Positions 45,014 through 59,861 of a DNA stretch of 64,000 nt are shown here, one piece after another. The DNA comes from Candidatus Gottesmanbacteria bacterium (GTDB lineage Bacteria; Patescibacteriota; Microgenomatia; UBA10105; UBA927): positions 34,865 through 98,864 of the forward strand of contig OY969569.1 of the NCBI GenBank assembly GCA_963701185.1. The letters run 5' to 3'. The translations under genes were made by a program, and so were the position numbers. Under the pieces are notes generated by a model. It did no database searches. It worked only from the letters and a program-made list of their open reading frames with translations, and was not told the DNA's origin. Numbering within the stretch: position 1 is the stretch's first letter; every line of letters starts with the position of its first letter.

Positions 45014-45020
45014 ATCTGGA

Positions 45021-45072
45021 TTTTGCAACATCTTGCAACATTTTGCAACATCTTGCAACATTGTGCAATATG
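45021..45072 (+). repeat. Tandem 10-bp repeats (TTGCAACATY x4 plus a degenerate fifth) upstream of fic
   Basis: ttTTGCAACATCTTGCAACATTTTGCAACATCTTGCAACATTGTGCAATATG; the last TTGCAA lies 17 nt before TAGATT, which ends 7 nt before the fic ATG. Confidence 0.8.
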
Positions 45073-45087
45073 CGGTAGATTGAAGAC

Positions 45088-46083
45088 ATGAAGTTTCCTC
45101 CGGTATACACGTACACTCCCGAAATAAAGCAATTACTCTATGATCTGGACGTTTTGAGAGCAGGTTATGAACTTCATCCTGTACCGGCTCTCTCGGTCGT
45201 CAATCTCCGACGCGCCTCGCTTCTTAAGAGCTCGCTTTATAGCGCGCGCATAGAAGGAAACCCTCTGGATGTTGGAGATGTAGATGATGTCCGTCCGAGT
45301 GATACTGATATTCATAAAATTGAAGTTGGGAATTTGGTTTCTGCATATGAGCAATTATCAGATATCATCGGGCAGAATGTGACACTTGATACACTCAAAA
45401 AGCTGCATGCCGTTGTGCTTCGGAATATTTCGGCAGACGCCGGTTATTTGCGTACGGAAGAATCTGCAATATATAACCAGGCAGGTACTGTTGTTTATCT
45501 CACACCTGCACCGCAAAACATTCGGACACTTTTAGACGCGCTGTGTGTTTATGTGAATGCTGCAAAAGATGCTGTTCCTGTCGCTTCGGGATTGACGCAT
45601 ATCTGGTTTGAGAAGATCCATCCGTTTTTGGACGGCAACGGCAGAGTCGGAAGATTACTGTCTGCCTATATCCTCAAAAAAGGCGGATACGACTTTAGCG
45701 GACTGGTCCCGTTTGAACAGTATCTGGATGAGCACCGCGATGACTATTATCATTTTTTGGGGCAGGATAGACAGGATGTGACTAGTTTTATAGAATTTTA
45801 TCTTACTGCACTTCTTTCGCAGGCAAAAATATCGCTTAAAATCGCATACGAGTTCGACGAGTCCGGTAAACCTGACACATATGCACAGTTAATGCCCCGC
45901 AGGGCAGAAATTATGAGACTCATCGAAGATCACAAGATTGTGACGTTTGATTTTCTTGCCCGAAGATTCCGGGCAGTAGCAGTCCGCACGCTTCACAATG
46001 ATCTCTCTCAACTTACCAAAGCCGGGTTGGTACAAAAAATGGGTTCCACACGGGGAGTGTGCTACACGGTAAAAGAAAAATGA
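45088..46083 (+). CDS. fic: Fic family protein (class II, with N-terminal inhibitory motif)
   Basis: Fic motif HPFLDGNGRVGR; [ST]xxxE[GN] inhibitory motif SARIEGN upstream; C-terminal wHTH-like tail. Confidence 0.85.
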   Translation: MKFPPVYTYTPEIKQLLYDLDVLRAGYELHPVPALSVVNLRRASLLKSSLYSARIEGNPLDVGDVDDVRPSDTDIHKIEVGNLVSAYEQLSDIIGQNVTLDTLKKLHAVVLRNISADAGYLRTEESAIYNQAGTVVYLTPAPQNIRTLLDALCVYVNAAKDAVPVASGLTHIWFEKIHPFLDGNGRVGRLLSAYILKKGGYDFSGLVPFEQYLDEHRDDYYHFLGQDRQDVTSFIEFYLTALLSQAKISLKIAYEFDESGKPDTYAQLMPRRAEIMRLIEDHKIVTFDFLARRFRAVAVRTLHNDLSQLTKAGLVQKMGSTRGVCYTVKEK

Positions 46084-46296: not shown

Positions 46297-46968
46297 TTAT
46301 TTGCACGTCTCCGATTTTGTAAATCCCGCGGCCCGCGCCTCCGCTTCCGTACAAAACCACTCGTCGCCCTGAAATTTGAGAATTAAAACTCTGCCATAGC
46401 CCCAGCATTGAGGCAGGAAATAAATCTTTTCTCTTTGATTTGTATCATTATTGCCCTTAATTGTGCATGAAGGATTGGGAGGATCAGCTTGGGAACATTC
46501 AGAGCTGTAAATCCCGACATGGTTTTCCCGTGCGTACGTATTGGCCGCATCCATCCGTGTTTTTTGGCTTCCTCCTTCATTTCCGTATTCCCCAAATCCC
46601 GCGCGTACCATAACTTCATTAATGAGCACTCCGTTTTCATATACCAGGCTCATCACGCGGCGCCCGTACCGGTCAACCTCCGGCTCCCGCAGTTGTACCC
46701 GCTTGCCGAGGATAAGGGTGGATAGCGCCTGTTTTGCCTCTTTTCCATAGCAGTACGTGATGTCCGGCGCGTTGATGCCGTAAAGCCGGATCGGCTGGTG
46801 GTTTTCGATGATGAACGTATCCCCGTCAACAACCTCGATAACCTTTTCCCCTTTAAAGTACGGCAGGTTTCCTGCCGCCAGCGCCCCTCCGCCTATAGTT
46901 GCCGCCCCCAATGCCGCCACCAGCAACTTTTTCCATCTTGGAATTGTCCGTTTCTTTTTCCTCCTCAT
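46297..46968 (-). CDS. Thermonuclease (SNase-like) family protein
   Basis: Signal or TM, then VVDGDTF..RLYGINAP staphylococcal-nuclease motifs; Cys-rich C-terminal tail. Confidence 0.7.
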   Translation of the reverse strand: MRRKKKRTIPRWKKLLVAALGAATIGGGALAAGNLPYFKGEKVIEVVDGDTFIIENHQPIRLYGINAPDITYCYGKEAKQALSTLILGKRVQLREPEVDRYGRRVMSLVYENGVLINEVMVRAGFGEYGNEGGSQKTRMDAANTYARENHVGIYSSECSQADPPNPSCTIKGNNDTNQREKIYFLPQCWGYGRVLILKFQGDEWFCTEAEARAAGFTKSETCK

Positions 46969-47128: not shown

Positions 47129-48091
47129 CTAAGAGGTTTTAGAGCTATACAATTTAAAAAACGCTTCATTCATTTCCTCTTCTTTCCAACCCACTTGTCG
47201 TAATTTAACTTTTAAATCTGCCCATTTTTCTCCTACCGAAATATGGGCGGATATATATTTCATTAATTCTGGATTTGGTTGATAGTGAGATTGTTCCTGT
47301 TGAATAGGGTTGATACTTTGAGGAGAAGTTTGTATTACAGAGTCTTTTGATAATGGGATTTGTTTTCTGAGCCATGACGAAGCCACATCGACCCAATTAG
47401 GATTATTTTGACTATTAGAATTTAATGATCGGCCCAAATTTTCTTGTTCGACTTCCAGTAGTTTAATTAAATAATTTCTTCCGCATAATTGAACATTTGT
47501 ATCGTAGGCGACCTTCCGTGCAAAGCTCGTAAAATTACTATTAGTAAAAATTAGCGCATGGTCACAATGATGTACCGTTTTTCCTGTAAAGACTTCTTGT
47601 ACGGCACGCTCGTTAACATTGCCTTGCCAGCATTTTGCTTGGATCGCTGTACGTCTTCCATCTTTTATTATGATTAGATCTACACCTAGATCACCAGATT
47701 TACCAGTATGTTCAACTTGATAGCCTAAATTTTTATATAAAACCACTAACCGATTCTCAAACTCCGGTCCACTCATCTTATCGATATCAAATATTCCTGT
47801 TTTCGATAACTTATCACGCTGGTACTCTCTATAAATTAGGCGTAATACATATATTACGACGATGAGGATAATCAGAGGTAGGAGAGATGTAATGAGAGAT
47901 ACGACGCTAGCCGATCCACCAAATGCTGCAAGCAGAACAAAACCTACAAGAAGCATGGCAAGACCATTCTCGAGTGAATACTTTGAATTACGCTTATATC
48001 TACCTTGTCTAAACCAATTTTTACCGGAACCAAAGCCAAAATTGCCTAAACTATAGCCTCCAAATCCATAATTATTCCGTCTATAACTCAT
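47129..48091 (-). CDS. Membrane-anchored restriction endonuclease, Mrr_cat-like PD-(D/E)xK
   Basis: Gly-rich N-terminus, two TM, then GPEFENRLVVLYKNLGY..GDLGVDLII..AIQAKCW typical of the Mrr catalytic domain; AT-rich. Confidence 0.65.
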   Translation of the reverse strand: MSYRRNNYGFGGYSLGNFGFGSGKNWFRQGRYKRNSKYSLENGLAMLLVGFVLLAAFGGSASVVSLITSLLPLIILIVVIYVLRLIYREYQRDKLSKTGIFDIDKMSGPEFENRLVVLYKNLGYQVEHTGKSGDLGVDLIIIKDGRRTAIQAKCWQGNVNERAVQEVFTGKTVHHCDHALIFTNSNFTSFARKVAYDTNVQLCGRNYLIKLLEVEQENLGRSLNSNSQNNPNWVDVASSWLRKQIPLSKDSVIQTSPQSINPIQQEQSHYQPNPELMKYISAHISVGEKWADLKVKLRQVGWKEEEMNEAFFKLYSSKTS

Positions 48092-48132
48092 ATCTTAGGT
48101 ATAACACTTCAAGCGAATATATCAAAACATCG

Positions 48133-48159
48133 ACTCGCGAGTGTGAGGGGAGTATAATT
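48133..48159 (+). promoter_or_regulatory. Perfect 10-bp palindrome (ACTCGCGAGT) next to a TATAAT -10, putative operator/promoter of the RM gene
   Basis: Palindrome at 48133-48142; TATAAT at 48154-48159; ATG at 48172, so a very short leader. Confidence 0.45.
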
Positions 48160-48171
48160 TGAGTTGCTTCT

Positions 48172-51100
48172 ATGCAAAATATTTTTGACGACTATATTCA
48201 ATCAATTTCCTCTAAATTTTCCCATGAAGAAACTAGTGAAATGGGATACCGCACCGATTTTGAGATCTTAATCAAGGGGATTTTTGAATCAATTAACGTT
48301 AAGCGGATAGATCACGATGCGAAAGCTCAACAAGGGAATAAGCCGGATTTTGTTGTGCTCAATCACGACGTACCAATTCTTTATATCGAAGCAAAAGATA
48401 TTGGCGTATCTTTAGATAAAGTTGAGAAGTCTGAACAGATGAGCAGGTATTACGGATACGCAAATTTAATTCTTACGGATTACGTAGAGTTTCGTTTCTA
48501 TAGAAACGGTCAACGTTATGAAGATCCCATAAAGGTAGCAAATTATAAATTAAAAAATCGAACAATTACTCCTATTCCGGAAAATTATGAACATGCTTCA
48601 AAAACACTACTCGACTTCACGCAATCACATAAAGAGCCTATACGATCTGGTAAACATCTTTCAAAAATTATGGGTGGTAAAGCTCAAAGGATACGGGATA
48701 ATGTTCGATATTTTCTTTCTAGCGAGTCAGAAAAAAATGCTGAATTAGTGCGTGTTTATGAAACTATTAAAAAACTTCTGGTTCATGATCTTACACCAGA
48801 CACCTTTGCCGATATGTACGCGCAGACTCTCGTCTATGGTCTTTTTATCGCACGTTATTATGATGACTCACCAGATAATTTTACTCGTCAGGAAGCACGC
48901 GATCTTATACCGACGTCCAACCCACTTCTTAGACATTTTTTTGACCATATAGTGGGGCCAGATTTTGATAAACGGCTTGAGTATATCGTAAATGAGTTGT
49001 GTGAAGTTTTTTCTCACGCCAATATTCCAGAGCTAATGAGGGAATATTTCAAGGTTGATCTGTGGGGTAAGACGCATACGGGTCCGGATCCAGTCATTCA
49101 TTTTTATGAAGATTTTTTGAAAGAGTATGATGATGACCTGCGTAAAAAGATGGGTGCTTACTATACGCCATTACCAGTTGTGCAGTTTATTGTGCGCTCC
49201 GTTGATTATTTGCTAGAAAAAGAGTTCGGTCTTGCGGCTGGTTTAGCCGACACGTCTAAGACGGCATCTGGTGTTCACCGTGTTCAAATTCTTGATCCAG
49301 CCGTTGGGACAGGGACGTTTATAAGCGACGTTATAGGGAAAATCTATGCGCGGATATTGAAAGGTAGACAAGAAGGGCGTTGGCCAACATATGTGCACCA
49401 TGATTTACTTCCGCGTTTGCATGGTTTTGAACTGATGATGGCGCCGTATACGATAGCACATTTAAAACTGGGTATAGCTTTTAAACAAACCGGTTTTAAA
49501 TATTTCAATCGTCGTCTCGGTATTTACCTTACAAATTCTCTAGAAGGAGGACCTATACAGGGGGAAATGTTTACAGGCTTCGGTTTTGCAGAAAGCATTG
49601 CTGAAGAGGCAAAAGAAGCTTCAAAGATAAAAAATGAAAAGCCAATAATGGTTGTTGTTGGTAATCCGCCCTACAGCATTAGTTCCTCTAATAAAGGAGA
49701 GTGGATTTTAAATCTTATTAAGGACTATAAGAAAAATTTGCACGAACGGAAAATTAACCTTGACGACGATTATATAAAATTTATTCGTTTTGCCGAGCAT
49801 TTCGTAGAGAAGAACGGAAGCGGTGTCGTGGCGATGATTACCAATAATTCATTCGTTGATGGTATTACTCACCGTCAGATGAGAAAGCATCTACTCGAAA
49901 CATTTGACGATATTTATATACTTAACCTTCATGGCAGTTCTAAGAAAAAAGAAATAGCCCCCGATGGTGGTAAAGACGAGAATGTTTTTGACATTCAGCA
50001 AGGTGTTGCTATATCGATGTTTGTGCGTAAAGAAAAAGAGAAGAAAGGTCTTGGAATAGTTCACTACTCTGAAATTTATGGAAAGAGAGATGATAAATTC
50101 AAGGCCCTTGATGAAAGTAATTTACAAAAGATTAATTGGAAAAGTCTTGATTATTCAGAGCCGTATTATTTCTTTGCGCCAAAGGATTTCAGCGCAAATG
50201 AAGAATATAAGAAAGGATTTAAATTGGCCGATCTTTTTATGAACTACAATACTGGCATACAAACCAAAAGAGATAATTTGACTATCCAATTCGATGAAAG
50301 AAGTATTGAACAGGCAAAAGACGATCTAATTAATTTAGATGACAAAGCTCTTAGATTAAAGTATCGGCTTCCTGCTGATGGGAGGGATTGGACAATAGAA
50401 TCAGCTCGTAAAGATCTTATTAAAAATGACCCAGTAGTAGAGCGCATTCTTTATAGGCCCTTCGATACAAGATATACTTTATATACAGGTAAAACTAAAG
50501 GTTTTCTTGCTTATCCAAGGTCTGAAACATCAAGACACTTAATTGGTAAAGAAAATATCTCCCTCATTACTCTTCGATTAAATGGAGAAAATGAAAAATT
50601 TGTAATTCTGCAGACAAAATATTTAATAGAAAAAGGGTCTCTTGCCTCAGGAAATTATTCCTTTTTTCCTTTATATTTATACGAAGATGGTGGATTAAAA
50701 ATAACAAATCTCAAAAAAGAAATTATCGACGAGATAGAAAAAATCGTTGGAAAAGTTTCTCCGGAAGACATTTTTGATTACATTTACGCCGTTCTTCATT
50801 CGCCAAGATATCGAGAAAAATACAAGGAATTTCTAAAAATAGATTTTCCGCGTGTGCAGTATCCGAAAAACGTCGAAAGTTTCAAAAAACTCGTTTCCTT
50901 CGGAGCAGAGTTGCGCTCACTTCACCTTCTCGAATCACCGAAAGTAAACCAATTAATCACGACTTATCCTGTGGCCGGATCAGACATGATTGAAAAGTTA
51001 ACTTATAAAGACGGCAAGGTGTTTATCAATAAAGACCAGTATTTTGGCGATGTTCCAGGATTAGCATGGAATTTCTACATCGGCGGCTATCAGCCTGCAC

Positions 51101-51231
51101 AAAAGTGGCTTAAAGATCGCAAGAATAGAGTTCTAACTAACGCAGACATTGAACACTATCAGAAAATGATTGTTGCGTTGGCGGAGACGGGAAGAATTAT
51201 GAAGAAAATAGATCTAATTGCACAATTTTGA
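48172..51231 (+). CDS. Type IIG (MmeI-like) restriction-modification enzyme, fused endonuclease and N6-adenine methyltransferase
   Basis: N-terminal PD-(D/E)xK-like D..KPDFVV..IEAKDIG resembling MmeI; methyltransferase motif I (LDPAVGTGTF) and motif IV VGNPPYS; long C-terminal target-recognition region; 1019 aa. Confidence 0.8.
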   Translation: MQNIFDDYIQSISSKFSHEETSEMGYRTDFEILIKGIFESINVKRIDHDAKAQQGNKPDFVVLNHDVPILYIEAKDIGVSLDKVEKSEQMSRYYGYANLILTDYVEFRFYRNGQRYEDPIKVANYKLKNRTITPIPENYEHASKTLLDFTQSHKEPIRSGKHLSKIMGGKAQRIRDNVRYFLSSESEKNAELVRVYETIKKLLVHDLTPDTFADMYAQTLVYGLFIARYYDDSPDNFTRQEARDLIPTSNPLLRHFFDHIVGPDFDKRLEYIVNELCEVFSHANIPELMREYFKVDLWGKTHTGPDPVIHFYEDFLKEYDDDLRKKMGAYYTPLPVVQFIVRSVDYLLEKEFGLAAGLADTSKTASGVHRVQILDPAVGTGTFISDVIGKIYARILKGRQEGRWPTYVHHDLLPRLHGFELMMAPYTIAHLKLGIAFKQTGFKYFNRRLGIYLTNSLEGGPIQGEMFTGFGFAESIAEEAKEASKIKNEKPIMVVVGNPPYSISSSNKGEWILNLIKDYKKNLHERKINLDDDYIKFIRFAEHFVEKNGSGVVAMITNNSFVDGITHRQMRKHLLETFDDIYILNLHGSSKKKEIAPDGGKDENVFDIQQGVAISMFVRKEKEKKGLGIVHYSEIYGKRDDKFKALDESNLQKINWKSLDYSEPYYFFAPKDFSANEEYKKGFKLADLFMNYNTGIQTKRDNLTIQFDERSIEQAKDDLINLDDKALRLKYRLPADGRDWTIESARKDLIKNDPVVERILYRPFDTRYTLYTGKTKGFLAYPRSETSRHLIGKENISLITLRLNGENEKFVILQTKYLIEKGSLASGNYSFFPLYLYEDGGLKITNLKKEIIDEIEKIVGKVSPEDIFDYIYAVLHSPRYREKYKEFLKIDFPRVQYPKNVESFKKLVSFGAELRSLHLLESPKVNQLITTYPVAGSDMIEKLTYKDGKVFINKDQYFGDVPGLAWNFYIGGYQPAQKWLKDRKNRVLTNADIEHYQKMIVALAETGRIMKKIDLIAQF

Positions 51232-51252: not shown

Positions 51253-51462
51253 ATGATTAGACAACCGGTTACATCATCAGATTTAGCAAGTGTTGGATAC
51301 GATAATGAAGGAAAGATTCTTGAGATAGAATTTAATTCTGGTCAGGTCTATCAATATTTTGCTGTTCCAGAATATATTTATGAGGGCTTGATGAACGCGA
51401 CTTCTCATGGAAAGTATTTTAATCAGGAGATAAAAGATAACTATCAATTTCAAAAACTTTAA
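51253..51462 (+). CDS. KTSC domain protein
   Basis: [49 protein letters not shown] matches the KTSC domain pattern. Confidence 0.6.
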
Positions 51463-51463
51463 A

Positions 51464-53086
51464 ATGAGGATAAGAACAGTTGTAATAAAGAATTATAAAT
51501 GCATAGGTCCTGATCAAATCACAATTGATTTTTCTGAAAATATTGTTGTTTTAATTGGTGAAAACAACGTGGGAAAATCGGCAATTTTAGGCGCGTTAGA
51601 TTATTTTTTCTCCGGAATTAAAACATTGCCACCTGAGCATTTTTATAACAAGCAGAACGATTTTGAGCATGCGATTACAATCACGATTACCTTTTGCGAT
51701 TTGACTCCTGGAGACAAAGCGCATCAAGCTGTTAGTCCCTATATAACGACCCAAGGAAGCGAAAAGCTATGGATATTAAGGAAAGTCTATTACTACGATG
51801 CCGATGGTAAATCTAATTGCGATCACATAGCTATTGTTAACGGTGAAGAGAAAAGAAATCCGGCAGGATTAACTCAAAATCCAAACGATTTATTTACGGA
51901 GGAGAAGATGCAAAAAATATTTATTGAAGCCGTAAAGGACGTTAAAGAAGTGGTCGACGGCGGGCCAAAAACCCCGTTTAATCAAATATTTAATTTAATT
52001 TTAAGAGAAGATTTAGAACAAACCCCACAATACGCAACACTTTTGTCAGCATTAACAGCCTATGGGCAATTATTCCAAGGAGCTACGCAATTAACTAAAA
52101 TAAAGGATTTGGAAACGTCTATAACACAAAAGTTATCACGAACAATAATTGCGACAAGTAAGATTAAGGCAGAGTCTCCAAAAGCTGATAAATTACTTCC
52201 GATACCAAAGTTGACAACGAATGACGGTAGAATAATTGATGTTGATCCGTCCGAACAAGGACATGGTTTACAAAGATCAATAATATTTGCGTTGCTTGAA
52301 ATGTTAGCAGAAACAAATAGCCCGATAGACAAAGATGTTGGGCCTAATAACTTATTACTTATTGAAGAACCAGAAATATATATGCATCCCCAAATGGAAC
52401 GAAAAATCGCAGATACTCTATATGAGATTGCATCATCCGGAAAGGCTCAGGTAATATGTACGACACATTCTCCGATTTTTATTAGAATTGCGGATAAACA
52501 CAAAGCTATGGTTAGATTAGTAAGAAATGATGATGTTTTGAAGGCCATTCAAAGAAGTGATGTTTTTTCTGGGGATGACAGAGAGGAAAAAAGAAAGCAA
52601 TTAAGGATGATTACTAATTTTGACCCCACCGTTAACGAAATATTTTTTGCTAAAAGAATTGTTTTAGTAGAGGGTGATACAGAAGTAGCGGTATTTAGGG
52701 AGGCTGCAGAATTATTGAATTATTTTGAATCAGAAGTGAATAAACATAAAAAAAGAGATACAACATTTGTAAATTGCAGAGGCAAATGGACGATTAATTT
52801 ATTCCAAGAAGTGTTGAATCATTTTGATATTGATTATGTTGTTATTCATGATAAGGATGGTGAGGCTCTTGATGAGGGCGCAAATGGGAAGATTTTAACT
52901 TTGTTGAGCAATATTGAGGATAGACGTAGGTATTTTGATGATAAAATTGAAACAGTAATTGGGATAAGAGATGTTGGAAGCGAGAAACCAATTAGGGCTC
53001 TTGAACGAATTAATCAACTTCATGATGAGGGTGGTTTAGAACATGCGTTTGGAAGTTTTATAAAATTCGCATATGATATAGTTTAG
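51464..53086 (+). CDS. OLD-family ATP-dependent endonuclease (AAA_15/21 ATPase plus TOPRIM)
   Basis: Walker A GENNVGKS, ICTTHSP H-loop-like segment, C-terminal TOPRIM (RIVLVEGDTE ... HDKDGE, DxD). Confidence 0.75.
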   Translation: MRIRTVVIKNYKCIGPDQITIDFSENIVVLIGENNVGKSAILGALDYFFSGIKTLPPEHFYNKQNDFEHAITITITFCDLTPGDKAHQAVSPYITTQGSEKLWILRKVYYYDADGKSNCDHIAIVNGEEKRNPAGLTQNPNDLFTEEKMQKIFIEAVKDVKEVVDGGPKTPFNQIFNLILREDLEQTPQYATLLSALTAYGQLFQGATQLTKIKDLETSITQKLSRTIIATSKIKAESPKADKLLPIPKLTTNDGRIIDVDPSEQGHGLQRSIIFALLEMLAETNSPIDKDVGPNNLLLIEEPEIYMHPQMERKIADTLYEIASSGKAQVICTTHSPIFIRIADKHKAMVRLVRNDDVLKAIQRSDVFSGDDREEKRKQLRMITNFDPTVNEIFFAKRIVLVEGDTEVAVFREAAELLNYFESEVNKHKKRDTTFVNCRGKWTINLFQEVLNHFDIDYVVIHDKDGEALDEGANGKILTLLSNIEDRRRYFDDKIETVIGIRDVGSEKPIRALERINQLHDEGGLEHAFGSFIKFAYDIV

Positions 53087-53090
53087 TCGC

Positions 53091-53849
53091 ATGTCTCAAT
53101 ACTACAATCCCCATCGCGTAAAGAATAAGTATGAGGAGGGTGCAACTGAGTTGTTCAGGCTCAGCCGGTCGAAGGTGGATCTGTTTATCAACTGCCCGAG
53201 GTGCTTTTATCTGGACCGCAAGCTTGGGGTGGGGCAGCCGCCGGGGTATCCGTTTTCGCTTAATTCAGCCGTTGATAAGCTCTTGAAGAAAGAATTTGAT
53301 ATCCACCGGGCGAAGGGGACGCGGCATCCCTTGATGGAGCATTACGGCATTGATGCGATACCGCTTGCGCATGAAAAGATGAATGAGTGGCGCGATGCGC
53401 TGCGCGGGGGGATTACGTTTCAGATTGAAGGATCGAACGTAGTCGTGACCGGAGGAGTTGATGACGTGTGGTTGGCGCCTAACGGAGAGTATTATATCGT
53501 CGATTACAAAGCGACGTCCAAGGATGCGGAGGTCACGCTGGATGCTGACTGGCAAATAGGCTACAAGCGGCAGATGGAAATATACCAGTGGCTGTTCCGG
53601 AAGAACGGATTTCGGGTGTCCGATACCGGATATTTTGTGTATTGCAACGGGAATACCGACAAGAAGGCGTTTGACGGGAAATTGGAGTTTGATATCAAAA
53701 TTATTCCCTACGTTGGCGACGATTCGTGGGTTGCGGGAACGATCCATGATGCGATTAAATGCTTGCAAAGCGAGCACTTACCTGCGTCGGGGGCGGATTG
53801 TGATTATTGCAAATACAGGAAAGCGGTACGGCCGTTTGAAACTGCCTAA
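53091..53849 (+). CDS. Cas4/RecB-like PD-(D/E)xK nuclease with Fe-S cysteines
   Basis: N-terminal CPRC, core VDDVW...IVDYKAT (D..D/E-x-K), C-terminal C-x12-C-x2-C (CLQSEH..ADCDYC); GC about 52%, unlike its AT-rich neighbours. Confidence 0.6.
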   Translation: MSQYYNPHRVKNKYEEGATELFRLSRSKVDLFINCPRCFYLDRKLGVGQPPGYPFSLNSAVDKLLKKEFDIHRAKGTRHPLMEHYGIDAIPLAHEKMNEWRDALRGGITFQIEGSNVVVTGGVDDVWLAPNGEYYIVDYKATSKDAEVTLDADWQIGYKRQMEIYQWLFRKNGFRVSDTGYFVYCNGNTDKKAFDGKLEFDIKIIPYVGDDSWVAGTIHDAIKCLQSEHLPASGADCDYCKYRKAVRPFETA

Positions 53850-53883
53850 CCTATCTCTATATTTTTATCCGCATTTTGGTATC

Positions 53884-54516
53884 ATGTTGGTAATGCTCGT
53901 ATTTATTGATGATTCAGGAGATCCCGGATTTAAACTCGATAGAGGTTCCAGCCCCGTCTTTGTTATTTCCCTCACCATTATTGATGATAATTTGGAAGCA
54001 GAAAAAACATCGGTTGCGATAAAAGAGTTGCGCCGGAAATTGAAAGTACATGATGCATATGAGTTTAAGTTTAATAATTGCCATAAACGTTTCAAGAATG
54101 CATTTTTTTCTGCAGTATTACCGTTTATCTTTCGTGTCCGGGCGATAGTGGTAAAAAAATCCGTCATACGAAGTACGCATCTGCAAACTCATAAAGAAAA
54201 TTTTTATAACTATATTGTGATGCAGGTATTGAAACATAGTGTTGGTTCCGTCAAATCAGCGAGGTTAAAGTTTGATAAACGCGGTGAAAAAGCGCTTCGT
54301 AACGAGTTGCGGGTGTATTTGAGTTCAGAACTTGATAATAAACATAAGAATGTATTTACCGACTTCAAATTTGTTGATTCAAAACAAAACACACTTATTC
54401 AACTTGCGGATATGATAGCAGGTGCAATATTTGCGGCGTATTCGCGAAAAGACTCATCCTATGTTAATAAATTGCGGAAAGCGAAAAAGATTGAGGATAT
54501 TTGGGAGTTTCGATAA
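53884..54516 (+). CDS. DUF3800 family protein
   Basis: MLVMLVFIDDSGDPG N-terminus and QLADMIAGA motif characteristic of DUF3800. Confidence 0.6.
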   Translation: MLVMLVFIDDSGDPGFKLDRGSSPVFVISLTIIDDNLEAEKTSVAIKELRRKLKVHDAYEFKFNNCHKRFKNAFFSAVLPFIFRVRAIVVKKSVIRSTHLQTHKENFYNYIVMQVLKHSVGSVKSARLKFDKRGEKALRNELRVYLSSELDNKHKNVFTDFKFVDSKQNTLIQLADMIAGAIFAAYSRKDSSYVNKLRKAKKIEDIWEFR

Positions 54517-54681
54517 AAAAATCGACCCTCATTCCTATCCAAACGTTAGTTTGGAACGCGCACCATACGGTGACAATTCGGAATAAGGGTCTTTGTATAT
54601 GTAGTATAGCACGATTGTTACGACGTATCCACTTTGGGTTATTGTAACAATATATCTGTATACTTGACACAAGTTTGGGGA

Positions 54682-57770: not shown

Positions 57771-59861
57771 ATGGCTACGATTGATGACCTCAGGAAGATG
57801 CGGCTCACCAAACTTGCGAAGCTGAAAAAGCTCGGCGCGGATCCGTACCCCGGGACGATCACACGAAAACAGACGATTGCAAAGGCACGGTCTCTCCAGG
57901 GACGCGATGTTGCGGTGGCAGGACGTGTGATGGGGATGCGCGGCCACGGGAAAATTGGATTTTGGGATATTACCGACGGGACGGGAAAAATCCAGATCTT
58001 CTATAAATCCGATAAAATTTCTGATTTAATCGATCTCGGAGATTTTGTAGCCGTTCAGGGGGCTGTTGATAAAACCAAAGTCGGTGAAGTCACGGTATTT
58101 GCAAAAAATTTCCAGATTATTTCAAAAGCCGTCCGGCCGCTTCCGGGCGAATGGAGCGGCCTCAAGGATATTGAAGAGCGCTACCGCCAGCGGTACGTGG
58201 ATCTGATCGTCAACCCCGAGGTCCGCGATATATTTCTCACGCGCAGCCGCGTCGTGACGTTTTTGCGTGCGTTTTTGGACAGCGACGGATTTATTGAAGT
58301 GGATACGCCCGTGTTGCAGCCGATTTACGGAGGGGCGCAGGCCAAACCGTTTGTCACCCATCACAACGCACTGGATGTGGACCTGTATCTTCGGATTTCC
58401 GATGAGTTGTATCTCAAACGGCTTATTGTCGGCGGGTTTGACCGCGTGTATGAGATCGGCCGTGATTTCCGCAACGAAGGAATCGACCGGGCACACAACC
58501 CGGAGTTTACGATGCTCGAGTTCTACTGGGCCTATGCCGATTACGAAGACCTCATGAAATATACGGAGACGATGATTTCAAGCCTGGTGAAGGAACTGAA
58601 GGGATCGTATAAGGTGATGTTTCAGGGAACGGAACTGAATTTTGCAGCGCCCTGGCCGCGCACGTCCTACCGCGATGTCGTCCTCCAGTATTCCGGCATC
58701 GATATCAACGAATCTGATGATGAGAAAAAATTACTGGCGGCGGTGAAAGCGAAAAAAATTAAACTGGATTTGACCGGCGTTGTCGGGTACGGGGCACTCT
58801 TAGATACATTATATAAGGCAACGGCGCGGCCGCATTTAACCGGCCCCATGTATTTAACCGACCGGCCGACCGCATTTGTCGCTCTTGCCAAACGGCTTCC
58901 CAAAGATCCTACCAAAACCGCATCGTTCCAGCTGTTGGTCGCCGGCAAGGAAATGCTCAACGCATATAACGAACTCAACGATCCGGAAGATCAGGCGGCC
59001 CGTTGGCATGAGTCGGAAAAACTCGGGGCGAAAGGACAAACCGAACATGAAGCGTTTGACGAGGATTACATCCGTGCACTTGAATACGGCATGCCGCCGA
59101 CTGCCGGCTGGGGATTGGGTATCGACCGCCTCGTTTCCATCCTCACTGACCAGCCGAATATCAAGGACGTCATTTTATTCCCGACACTCCGGCCGGAAGC
59201 GGATACGCATTCCGGACAACCTGAAAAACTCGTAAAAAATGAACCTGATGGAAAAAAACAGAGTATTGGCATGACATACAAAAACGCAGTTGTATTAATG
59301 AATGAATATATAAAAGAGCCAACAAATAAACTGCATTTGTATGAATCTGAGGCAATCATGCGGGCGCTTGCCCGTCACTTTCATGAAGATGAGGAGCAGT
59401 GGGGAATTATCGGATTATTGCATGATATAGACTGGGAACTTACAAAAGCAAACACAAAGCAACACTGTATTACATGTGTCGACATATTAAAAAACCACGG
59501 AGCGACAAATTATCTAATTGAAACAATACAGTCCCATGGATATGGACAAGGTTTTGGTGACGAATATTATGGTCCATCGGAATTTAAAGGGAAAATACGT
59601 ACGAGCCGGGTGCAGCATGCCTTGGCTGCGGCGGAAACATTGACGGGGTTAATCATTGCATCAACACTAGTCCAGCCGGATAGAAAATTATTAAGCCTGA
59701 AGCCGGAGTCATTAAAAAAGAAATTCAACAATAAAAAATTTGCCGCAAATTGCCGGAGGGAAATAATTCTTGAGTGTGAGCAAATTGGATTACCCATCGA
59801 TGAGTTTCTGTCACTGGGACTCAAAGCTCTTCAAGGAATCCACCAAAAACTCGGTTTATAA
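57771..59861 (+). CDS. lysS: Lysine--tRNA ligase (class II) fused to a C-terminal HD-domain phosphohydrolase
   Basis: Residues about 1-490 are canonical LysRS (OB fold, motif 2 FRNEG, motif 3 GLGIDRL); residues about 500-696 contain H..HD (ARHFHED...GLLHDIDWE), resembling YqeK/HD-type hydrolases. Confidence 0.85.
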   Translation: MATIDDLRKMRLTKLAKLKKLGADPYPGTITRKQTIAKARSLQGRDVAVAGRVMGMRGHGKIGFWDITDGTGKIQIFYKSDKISDLIDLGDFVAVQGAVDKTKVGEVTVFAKNFQIISKAVRPLPGEWSGLKDIEERYRQRYVDLIVNPEVRDIFLTRSRVVTFLRAFLDSDGFIEVDTPVLQPIYGGAQAKPFVTHHNALDVDLYLRISDELYLKRLIVGGFDRVYEIGRDFRNEGIDRAHNPEFTMLEFYWAYADYEDLMKYTETMISSLVKELKGSYKVMFQGTELNFAAPWPRTSYRDVVLQYSGIDINESDDEKKLLAAVKAKKIKLDLTGVVGYGALLDTLYKATARPHLTGPMYLTDRPTAFVALAKRLPKDPTKTASFQLLVAGKEMLNAYNELNDPEDQAARWHESEKLGAKGQTEHEAFDEDYIRALEYGMPPTAGWGLGIDRLVSILTDQPNIKDVILFPTLRPEADTHSGQPEKLVKNEPDGKKQSIGMTYKNAVVLMNEYIKEPTNKLHLYESEAIMRALARHFHEDEEQWGIIGLLHDIDWELTKANTKQHCITCVDILKNHGATNYLIETIQSHGYGQGFGDEYYGPSEFKGKIRTSRVQHALAAAETLTGLIIASTLVQPDRKLLSLKPESLKKKFNNKKFAANCRREIILECEQIGLPIDEFLSLGLKALQGIHQKLGL

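Follow-up and report, generated by a model that had tools for sequence, protein, structure and literature searches.

An OLD-family gene abutting a Cas4-like nuclease in a Candidatus Gottesmanbacteria genome: a probable junction between an acquired KTSC–OLD cassette and a resident gene

Do two genes for nucleic-acid enzymes, separated by only four nucleotides, form a defence system? The question is raised by a locus in a 64,000-nucleotide stretch of a Candidatus Gottesmanbacteria genome (contig OY969569.1, positions 34,865 to 98,864; referred to below as the window), in which a gene of the OLD family, coding for an ABC-type ATPase joined to a TOPRIM nuclease, is directly followed by a gene for a Cas4-like nuclease of the PD-(D/E)xK type, designated here nuclease A. 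A first-pass annotation of the window took the two for a candidate unnamed two-gene defence module. The results presented here favour, with reasonable confidence, a different answer: the locus probably holds a Class-1-like OLD cassette, partnered by a small upstream KTSC gene, that was acquired horizontally at a defence hotspot lying before a housekeeping RecB/Cas4-like nuclease. On this reading the pair is a junction of foreign and native DNA, defence genes have landed repeatedly in the 5′ flank of nuclease A, and the tight spacing reflects the insertion point together with how compact candidate-phyla-radiation (CPR) genomes are. The three genes in question are:

51253..51462, + strand: KTSC-domain protein, 69 amino acids (aa) (Pfam KTSC 9.9e-27; GC content 0.32)
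51464..53086, + strand: OLD-family ABC-ATPase and TOPRIM nuclease, 540 aa (GC 0.35; domain, motif, GC and homologue evidence)
53091..53849, + strand: solo Cas4-like PD-(D/E)xK nuclease, nuclease A, 252 aa (GC 0.51; Pfam, alignments, AlphaFold and Foldseek)

The OLD gene, nuclease A and the boundary between them

The OLD and nuclease open reading frames (ORFs) lie where the first-pass annotation had placed them, and the OLD stop codon is indeed separated from the ATG of nuclease A by just the four nucleotides TCGC (53087-53090). The OLD protein matches the Pfam families AAA_15 (3.8e-38), AAA_21 (1.4e-19) and OLD-like_TOPRIM (1e-15, residues 394-465), its best PADLOC model is 'Old' (2.7e-74, the GajA models scoring far lower at 1e-36 and those of AriA also lagging far behind), and its closest solved structure is that of the Class 1 OLD from Thermus scotoductus (6p74, 2.7e-25). 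The motifs GENNVGKS, VLVEGDTE and DKD, recognised already at the first pass, occupy residues 32-39, 400-407 and 463-465, respectively. In an alignment of 15 sequences (the window protein and 14 relatives), the invariant columns of both the ATPase (G32, N34, G37, K38, E301-E304, T334 and H335) and the TOPRIM domain (E403, G404 and D463) are intact in the window protein, which also has the complete D463-K-D465. The N-terminal ABC ATPase carries Walker A, Walker B and the H-loop, and the C-terminal TOPRIM domain the catalytic glutamate and the DxD acidic residues. Judged from these features, the protein is a bona fide member of the OLD family, Class-1-like in type and with a predicted ATP-dependent nuclease activity. 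One database protein, encoded on a 995-kb contig, is 100% identical to it, and its relatives in CPR metagenomes, 55-73% identical, are of the same length (536-543 aa).

That the OLD or the KTSC gene might be an inactive remnant in a decaying juxtaposition was raised in the first-pass annotation, and the compositionally unameliorated state of the island containing both genes would agree with it; the idea is nevertheless hardly credible. The ORFs are full length, the OLD relatives keep their size, and the KTSC protein matches its Pfam model (PF13619) over positions 1-58 of 58 with 92.9 bits against a cut-off of 25, which makes it a member of that family. Inactivated Walker or TOPRIM motifs, listed at the first pass as evidence that would count against a module, are not borne out, no inactivating change having been seen among the ATPase and TOPRIM residues of the 15-sequence alignment.

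What divides the OLD gene from nuclease A is composition. The GC content of the former is 0.350 (0.27 at third codon positions, GC3), whereas that of the latter is 0.507 (GC3 0.62) and that of the rest of the window 0.479, so the contrast seen at the first pass is real. Low GC spans from ~47.0 kb to the OLD stop codon (53.09 kb), i.e. an island of ~6 kb covering the genes of an Mrr-like enzyme, a Type IIG/ISP restriction-modification (RM) enzyme, KTSC and OLD. The GC3 switches within one 63-nt block at each end of the nuclease A ORF, on the start side (53024-53153) from 0.19 in the last OLD block to 0.52 and 0.81 in the first two blocks of nuclease A, and on the end side (53784-53943) from 0.52 to 0.33. 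Such an abrupt switch at both ends indicates that foreign DNA abuts the native gene within a few nucleotides on either side; the OLD gene is regarded as compositionally foreign and horizontally acquired. The break, falling exactly at the OLD/nuclease junction, bears on the possibility of a dedicated mobile system, in which KTSC, OLD and the Cas4-like gene (or just the latter two) would be inherited and transferred as one unit. In favour of such a unit are the tight spacings of 1 nt and 4 nt and the lack of any terminator-like site between the genes, although the counts of the promoter and terminator scan of the region equalled the shuffled expectation and so say nothing real about transcription units; the composition break is the first point against it.

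With regard to nuclease A, of the two profiles proposed for it at the first pass, Pfam PDDEXK_1 was matched (1.8e-14; 54.7 bits, the cut-off being 22) but Cas_Cas4 was not. Its catalytic D124, D138-x-K140 and Q161-x3-Y165 are invariant in alignments of 26 and 39 sequences, and with the D, (D/E)xK and QxxxY residues set on a RecB-like fold the protein belongs to the PD-(D/E)xK group. The AlphaFold model (predicted local distance difference test 78.8) has its best Foldseek matches, with a probability of ~1.0, among the AdnAB nuclease domains, RecE, the Cas4 proteins SSO0001 and Pcal_0546, EXO5 and AddB; a profile search against the PDB gave 4ic1 at 8.6e-4, and a single-sequence search of the same database only noise. 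The cysteines described at the first pass, CPRC (35-38) and C224-x12-C237-x2-C240, are present in the window protein, but in the same two alignments only C35, C38, C237 and C240 are invariant, C224 being variable. The conserved metal site is therefore CxxC...CxxC (2+2) and not the canonical 1+3 iron staple of Cas4, made of one N-terminal cysteine and a C-terminal CxxCx5C; the metal may be Fe-S or Zn. By prediction, nuclease A would be a metal-cluster-stapled, DNA end-processing exonuclease. Its identity with a CRISPR-type Cas4 was rejected, since it falls below the family cut-offs (34 bits for TIGR00372, with a cut-off of 65), the annotated neighbours include no cas genes, and no repeat-spacer array was detected in the 64-kb window by Tandem Repeats Finder, a tool not designed for CRISPR arrays.

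Nuclease A in other genomes and the genes that precede it

Relatives of nuclease A were found by tblastn, taking one genome per species, in at least 592 species genomes from Levy-, Shapiro-, Gottesman-, Woese- and Woykebacteria (Microgenomates), WWE3, Parcubacteria lineages and Saccharibacteria, the identity dropping with taxonomic distance. A protein search returned at least 8000 matches (protein clusters), the best 120 of them at 77-85% identity. Eighty species-level loci (63-80% identity) were retained, and their ORFs were examined up to 8 kb on each side. Between the nuclease A gene and DNA located over 3 kb from it, GC content is correlated (r=0.89, n=71 species loci, host range 0.31-0.61), and this tracking of the host indicates a long-term resident in each genome. 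In 75 of the 80 loci no OLD gene is found next to nuclease A, so that the claim of a dedicated module meets the very case that the first-pass annotation had named against it, i.e. a conserved stand-alone nuclease. The distribution matches the published description of 'solo Cas4' genes, common, over-represented and vertically inherited in CPR (Hudaiberdiev et al. 2017, PMC5704561). With the solo Cas4 proteins of CPR and DPANN as well as with AddB, AdnAB and EXO5, nuclease A shares the RecB-like D...DxK...QxxxY core and the terminal cysteines, and like the solo Cas4 it stands alone, without CRISPR context, and is vertically inherited in small-genome bacteria; it differs from them in the 2+2 cysteines, in its exceptional conservation (63-85% across the superphylum) and in its score below the TIGR00372 cut-off.

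The nuclease A gene was called in 79 of the species loci, yielding 76 genes immediately upstream (position -1), which match as many as 91 Pfam families. They cover defence types, such as OLD (5), GmrSD, Schlafen/AlbA_2, SNase, UvrD-type helicases and Dam methylase, together with housekeeping ones, such as cyclophilin (3), transketolase, YceG and PNP; half of the co-directional -1 genes lie within 12 nt. Metagenomic contexts have a type III RM, UvrD or a SocA/Panacea pair upstream. The proximal 2 kb upstream averages 3.5 GC points below the nuclease A gene, and the genes immediately downstream (+1) are mostly core ones (Trypsin_2, FtsK, MetRS, FtsW and glycosyltransferases). It should be pointed out that PADLOC, applied to the -1 genes, gave matches dominated by redundant GajA models and no usable defence fraction. 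Nuclease A thus has the behaviour of a core gene, itself conserved, on the 5′ side of which foreign and often defensive DNA accumulates.

The possibility that nuclease A is the cargo of conjugative elements or phages was also considered, based on two observations. Genes for FtsK/SpoIIIE and type IV secretion (TrbC, TraC-like and VirB4/TraG-like) follow a few genes downstream in L001 (9534-14759) and L004 (9505-10440), which hints at conjugative elements near the site, and six IMG/VR contigs classed as viral (L116-L121) contain relatives at 46-62% identity, none with an OLD neighbour. As a general explanation this was rejected, the GC content tracking the host and the +1 genes being mostly core ones. 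Some of the homologues (P0005, P0021 and P0080; ~317 aa) have an additional FtsK_gamma domain match.

Concerning the dedicated mobile system, the three-gene order does recur, with nuclease A in L113 and with a paralogous nuclease, designated nuclease B, in L114 and L144. It is, however, very improbable: the nuclease occurs in hundreds of species without OLD and its GC tracks the host, the KTSC–OLD pair of L115 precedes a peptidase instead, and both nucleases (70-90% identity) are far more conserved than any defence gene in their loci. The co-occurrence and co-transfer implied by the candidate two-gene module fail on the nuclease side in the 75 loci mentioned above, on the OLD side in seven of the 12 distinct loci of the window OLD clade that have a readable downstream gene and no Cas4-like gene there, and at the junction itself through the composition break. 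A dedicated OLD and Cas4 module is therefore rejected on grounds of distribution, composition and lack of co-divergence, the proposal being largely refuted; both the OLD protein and the nuclease belong to families already known, and their pairing is not a discrete system.

The adjacency is, on the other hand, non-random, although not that of a co-inherited two-gene system, and several observations weigh against a simple landing-site explanation. A profile search among all the ORFs of the 80 species loci revealed exactly five full OLD genes (in L012, L013, L015, L026 and L032), and all five of them occupy position -1 of nuclease A on the same strand, with anything from an 8-nt overlap to a 12-nt gap; the P value of this placement is ~5e-6 if every gene slot in these loci is taken as equally likely. 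Pairwise identity among the five and the window OLD is only 26-32% (45% for L026/L032), while their nucleases are 70-79% identical, and the OLD genes at -1 span at least four very divergent lineages, the window clade being a fifth. In four of the six loci (window, L015, L026 and L032) the GC of the OLD region is clearly below that of both nuclease and host, pointing to separate acquisitions. Viewed from the OLD side, a Cas4-like nuclease is at +1 in five of the 12 readable loci, nuclease A in the window and L113, and nuclease B in L114, L144 and L095. To account for this, a hotspot by itself would have to be supplemented by a further assumption, e.g. that incoming cargo always lands nearest to the nuclease and that OLD genes are always the youngest, or the fastest to turn over. 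Moreover, no integrase, att repeats or flanking tRNA accounts for the targeting of an insertion at the window locus, the flanking direct repeats being short matches at chance level and the sole tRNA lying 3 kb off, and no relative with an 'empty site' was found when the genes flanking the locus in the window were sought directly beside the nuclease in the fetched loci, the relatives among these being too divergent.

Nuclease B (~220 aa) is a paralogue of nuclease A, 22% identical (E 7e-8) and with the same CxxC...D...DxK...QxxxY...CxxC layout. With 931 homologues, 68-90% identical among the matches listed, it represents a conserved CPR family. Elsewhere it is preceded by type I and IIG RM, toxin-antitoxin and NYN genes and followed by L21/L27, FtsW and ParB, with no OLD, a hotspot pattern like that of nuclease A and one that speaks for a landing site. 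The copies considered here are:

L114, 6627-7277: nuclease B
L095, 6649-7338: nuclease B
L144, 3585-3989: nuclease B
L148-L156: further copies of nuclease B

The non-random placement could be explained by a facultative coupling, in which OLD genes of CPR would be selected to stand just upstream of the resident nuclease gene and to be expressed along with it, the two cooperating, while elsewhere the nuclease serves housekeeping. Two versions may be envisaged. In the first, OLD would guard the end-processing nuclease, like P2 OLD firing in RecBCD-compromised cells; in the second, OLD would nick or cut and the exonuclease degrade, which would resemble Gabija, with the partner corresponding to the nuclease half and not to the UvrD half of an AddA/AdnB-type enzyme. 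The placement of all five near-abutting OLD genes from such distant lineages fits this explanation, as do the presence of the paralogous nuclease B at +1 of three relatives of the window OLD, the order KTSC, OLD and nuclease A kept in L113 despite a different upstream RM gene, the end-resection role suggested by UvrD helicases at -1 of nuclease A and by its AdnAB/AddB-like fold, and the link of P2 OLD to RecBCD status (PMC10568477; bioRxiv 10.64898/2026.07.10.737580).

Several results speak against the coupling. Of the nuclease A loci, 93% are without OLD. There is no subclade of OLD-associated nucleases either, the nearest relatives of the OLD-adjacent ones being mostly not OLD-adjacent (with the exception of L026 and L032, whose nucleases are each other's nearest relative), nor any co-divergence, the identities of the OLD proteins showing no significant correlation with those of the nucleases (Spearman -0.36). 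The window OLD clade is found equally with AbiV, SNase, the S51 peptidase of L115 or a convergent core gene downstream; in its branch at 56-59% identity, the +1 gene is that for HEPN AbiV (L093, L097 and L098) or for a membrane-anchored SNase (L094), so that nucleases of other kinds fill the slot there. A scan of viral contigs with the OLD profile gave 22 distant OLD loci, none with a Cas4-like nuclease or KTSC neighbour. Defence by Vc OLD is reported to be independent of RecBCD perturbation (PMC12392090), and a single hotspot in CPR genomes of ~1 Mb may hold most defence genes, inflating the association. On balance the facultative coupling is rather unlikely, though clearly ahead of a dedicated system. 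A partnership of the guard or nick-then-degrade kind with the nuclease is, by analogy with the history of P2 OLD and RecBCD, plausible, and a still somewhat more tentative proposal is that many independent OLD lineages were recruited before the conserved CPR nuclease, either to guard it from inhibitors made by phages or to feed it with nicked DNA. The result would be a split system of the Gabija kind with a housekeeping enzyme as partner, in which, for the window clade, KTSC would add a control of tRNA or oligomerisation.

The KTSC–OLD cassette and its relation to known systems

The preferred reading, a KTSC-partnered OLD cassette brought to the front of a resident nuclease, assigns the partnership to the other side of the OLD gene, where the first-pass account had overlooked the KTSC gene. 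The stop codon TAA of the KTSC gene ends one nucleotide before the OLD ATG, and a KTSC gene stands directly upstream of OLD in six loci with an OLD identity of at least 63% and a readable upstream region, i.e. the window, L089, L113, L114, L115 and L144, the stop and start codons overlapping or abutting in the last five as well. The same junction amid differing surroundings indicates that KTSC–OLD is the unit that moves. The OLD loci compare as follows (identity to the window OLD):

L089, 73%: KTSC upstream; contig too short to give a context
L113, 71%: KTSC upstream; RM gene present, its product only 24% identical to the window RM enzyme
L114, 68%: KTSC upstream; LexA/DUF2188 context
L144, 68%: KTSC upstream; before it a methylase-like gene, taken as part of a type I RM, whose product is truncated where the contig stops
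L115, 63%: KTSC upstream; ABC exporter context
L090/L145/L146, 64%: no KTSC upstream
L147, 61%: no KTSC upstream
OLD clade at 55-60%: no KTSC upstream

As an RNA-binding domain, KTSC has been attributed to lysyl-tRNA synthetase; otherwise the literature on it is almost nil, no PADLOC model matches it, and a KTSC scan of the viral contigs returned nothing. Searched against the PDB, the window protein matches a free-standing protein (7x8c, 1.2e-23) and the C-terminal arm of HerA in 8wiv (residues 628-695, 2.1e-19). In the SIR2-HerA system of Paenibacillus, this arm stabilises the HerA hexamer (PMC11472057). On plasmids of Sulfitobacter and Rhizobium (L157 4001-4210; L158 4001-4210), a separate KTSC gene of ~70 aa overlaps the stop codon of HerA in SIR2-HerA operons, the window protein sharing 58% identity with the copies from Sulfitobacter and 55% with that from Rhizobium. 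On haloarchaeal plasmids, KTSC genes overlap those of ThiF-family adenylyltransferases. KTSC is considered a recurring accessory of defence ATPases, fused or split, and more generally it seems to accompany the enzymes of conflict systems. What the window has in common with SIR2-HerA is thus a KTSC domain accompanying a defence ATPase, either fused (Paenibacillus) or as a separate gene (Sulfitobacter, Rhizobium), but the ATPase is here an ABC-type OLD and not a HerA hexamer, KTSC is upstream and not downstream, and there is no SIR2 effector.

Among the OLD systems, the window protein most resembles Class 1 (P2 Old, Ts OLD 6P74 and Vc OLD), having the ABC ATPase and TOPRIM in one chain of ~540 aa, the best PADLOC and structural matches given above, and no UvrD, reverse transcriptase or AriB neighbour. 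By definition Class 1 consists of one gene only, and it is described as lying away from other defence genes (PMC10568477), whereas the window OLD has an abutting KTSC gene, as in the other five loci, and lies inside a defence island directly before the Cas4-like nuclease. Given this departure from the single-gene definition, KTSC–OLD represents a variant form of OLD arrangement, of which neither PADLOC v2 nor the literature searched gave an example. The remaining classes were rejected. In Gabija (Class 2; GajA and the UvrD-like GajB), too, the OLD gene has another gene of DNA metabolism immediately behind it, and the partner in the window shows homology with the nuclease domain of AddA/AdnB-type enzymes, to whose helicase type GajB belongs; the window partner is, however, a resident conserved gene with PDDEXK_1 only and not co-transferred, there is no helicase in 47-55 kb, and the 'Old' model outscores those of GajA. 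As for Class 3 (retron Eco8), there is no reverse transcriptase among the neighbours, the model retron_eff_Eco8 gives 82.9 bits against a cut-off of 250, and no retron non-coding RNA was found, Rfam yielding only a DUF3800-IX RNA in 46-56 kb. With respect to Class 4 (PARIS), in which ATPase (AriA) and TOPRIM (AriB) come from two genes, the window protein has both in a single chain, of which the AriA model reaches no further than residues 1-340, and no AriB-like gene is present.

A possible course of action may be outlined. Judging from characterised Class 1 OLDs, the ABC ATPase would sense aberrant or phage-derived nucleic acid, and this would license cleavage by the TOPRIM domain, of either DNA (by nicking, as Vc OLD) or tRNA (as P2 OLD), which would stop the infection or the cell. 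Vc OLD is described as a DNA nickase (PMC12392090), and P2 OLD severs tRNA anticodon stems, being activated by tetramer destabilisation and single-stranded DNA hairpins (PMC12445682; bioRxiv 10.64898/2026.07.10.737580). KTSC would be a dedicated accessory subunit of OLD, which would either govern the oligomerisation and activation of OLD, in the manner of the KTSC-like arm with HerA, or bind RNA or tRNA. Nuclease A is probably co-transcribed only because the island abuts its start codon.

Surroundings of the locus and what the arrangement means

The remaining genes of the low-GC island, upstream of KTSC, and a further low-GC stretch on the 3′ side of nuclease A are the following:

47129..48091, - strand: Mrr-like restriction endonuclease, type IV-like, beginning with a membrane segment at its N-terminus (Pfam Mrr_cat 1.5e-24; GC 0.37)
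48172..51231, + strand: single-chain Type IIG/Type ISP RM enzyme, 1019 aa (PADLOC REase_MTase_IIG 4.7e-278; GC 0.37)
53884..54516, + strand: DUF3800 protein, PADLOC candidate PDC-M04A (Pfam DUF3800 8.6e-18; PDC-M04A 4.7e-18; GC 0.36)
54520..54591, - strand: DUF3800-IX RNA motif, Rfam RF02968 (66.5 bits, gathering threshold 36.8; E 3.9e-13)

The Mrr-like enzyme, the distal gene of the island, also matches the PADLOC models mREase_IV and ZorD nuclease domain, and the RM enzyme the Pfam families Type_ISP_C (4.4e-80), N6_Mtase and Eco57I. A sigma-70-like match at 48130-48158 is not significant alone. The first in-frame ATG of the DUF3800 ORF is at 53884, and the DUF3800-IX RNA lies 4 nt past the gene on the opposite strand; the gene and the RNA together make up a further insert of foreign DNA, a small one, lying 3′ of nuclease A.

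Just outside the island are genes with host-like GC for a Fic-domain protein (45088-46083, +) and an SNase homologue (46297-46968, -); in L045 and L063, too, an SNase homologue occupies position -1 of nuclease A. A short tandem repeat, ATTTTGCAAC x ~5 (45020-45068), lies between the genes for DUF2207 and Fic and is the only one in the 64-kb window. The lysyl-tRNA synthetase of the window (57771-59861, +; 696 aa) is covered by Pfam up to about residue 473, and its extra C-terminal part of ~220 aa has an HD-like 'HDIDWE' motif and not a KTSC domain.

The locus is, first of all, a cautionary case: tight spacing and plausible domain chemistry are not sufficient for a defence module, the downstream gene being a resident and the true partner a 69-aa protein encoded upstream. 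If the KTSC–OLD arrangement is confirmed, the context-based Classes 1-4 of OLD would gain a KTSC-associated form, and KTSC would become a reusable accessory of unrelated defence ATPases, HerA and OLD. The question is also raised why OLD genes in particular hold the nuclease-proximal slot. Two paralogous conserved solo Cas4-like genes each mark a defence landing site in CPR genomes, and the genes of nucleases A and B therewith offer a practical anchor for mining defence systems in CPR, organisms whose immunity is poorly charted.

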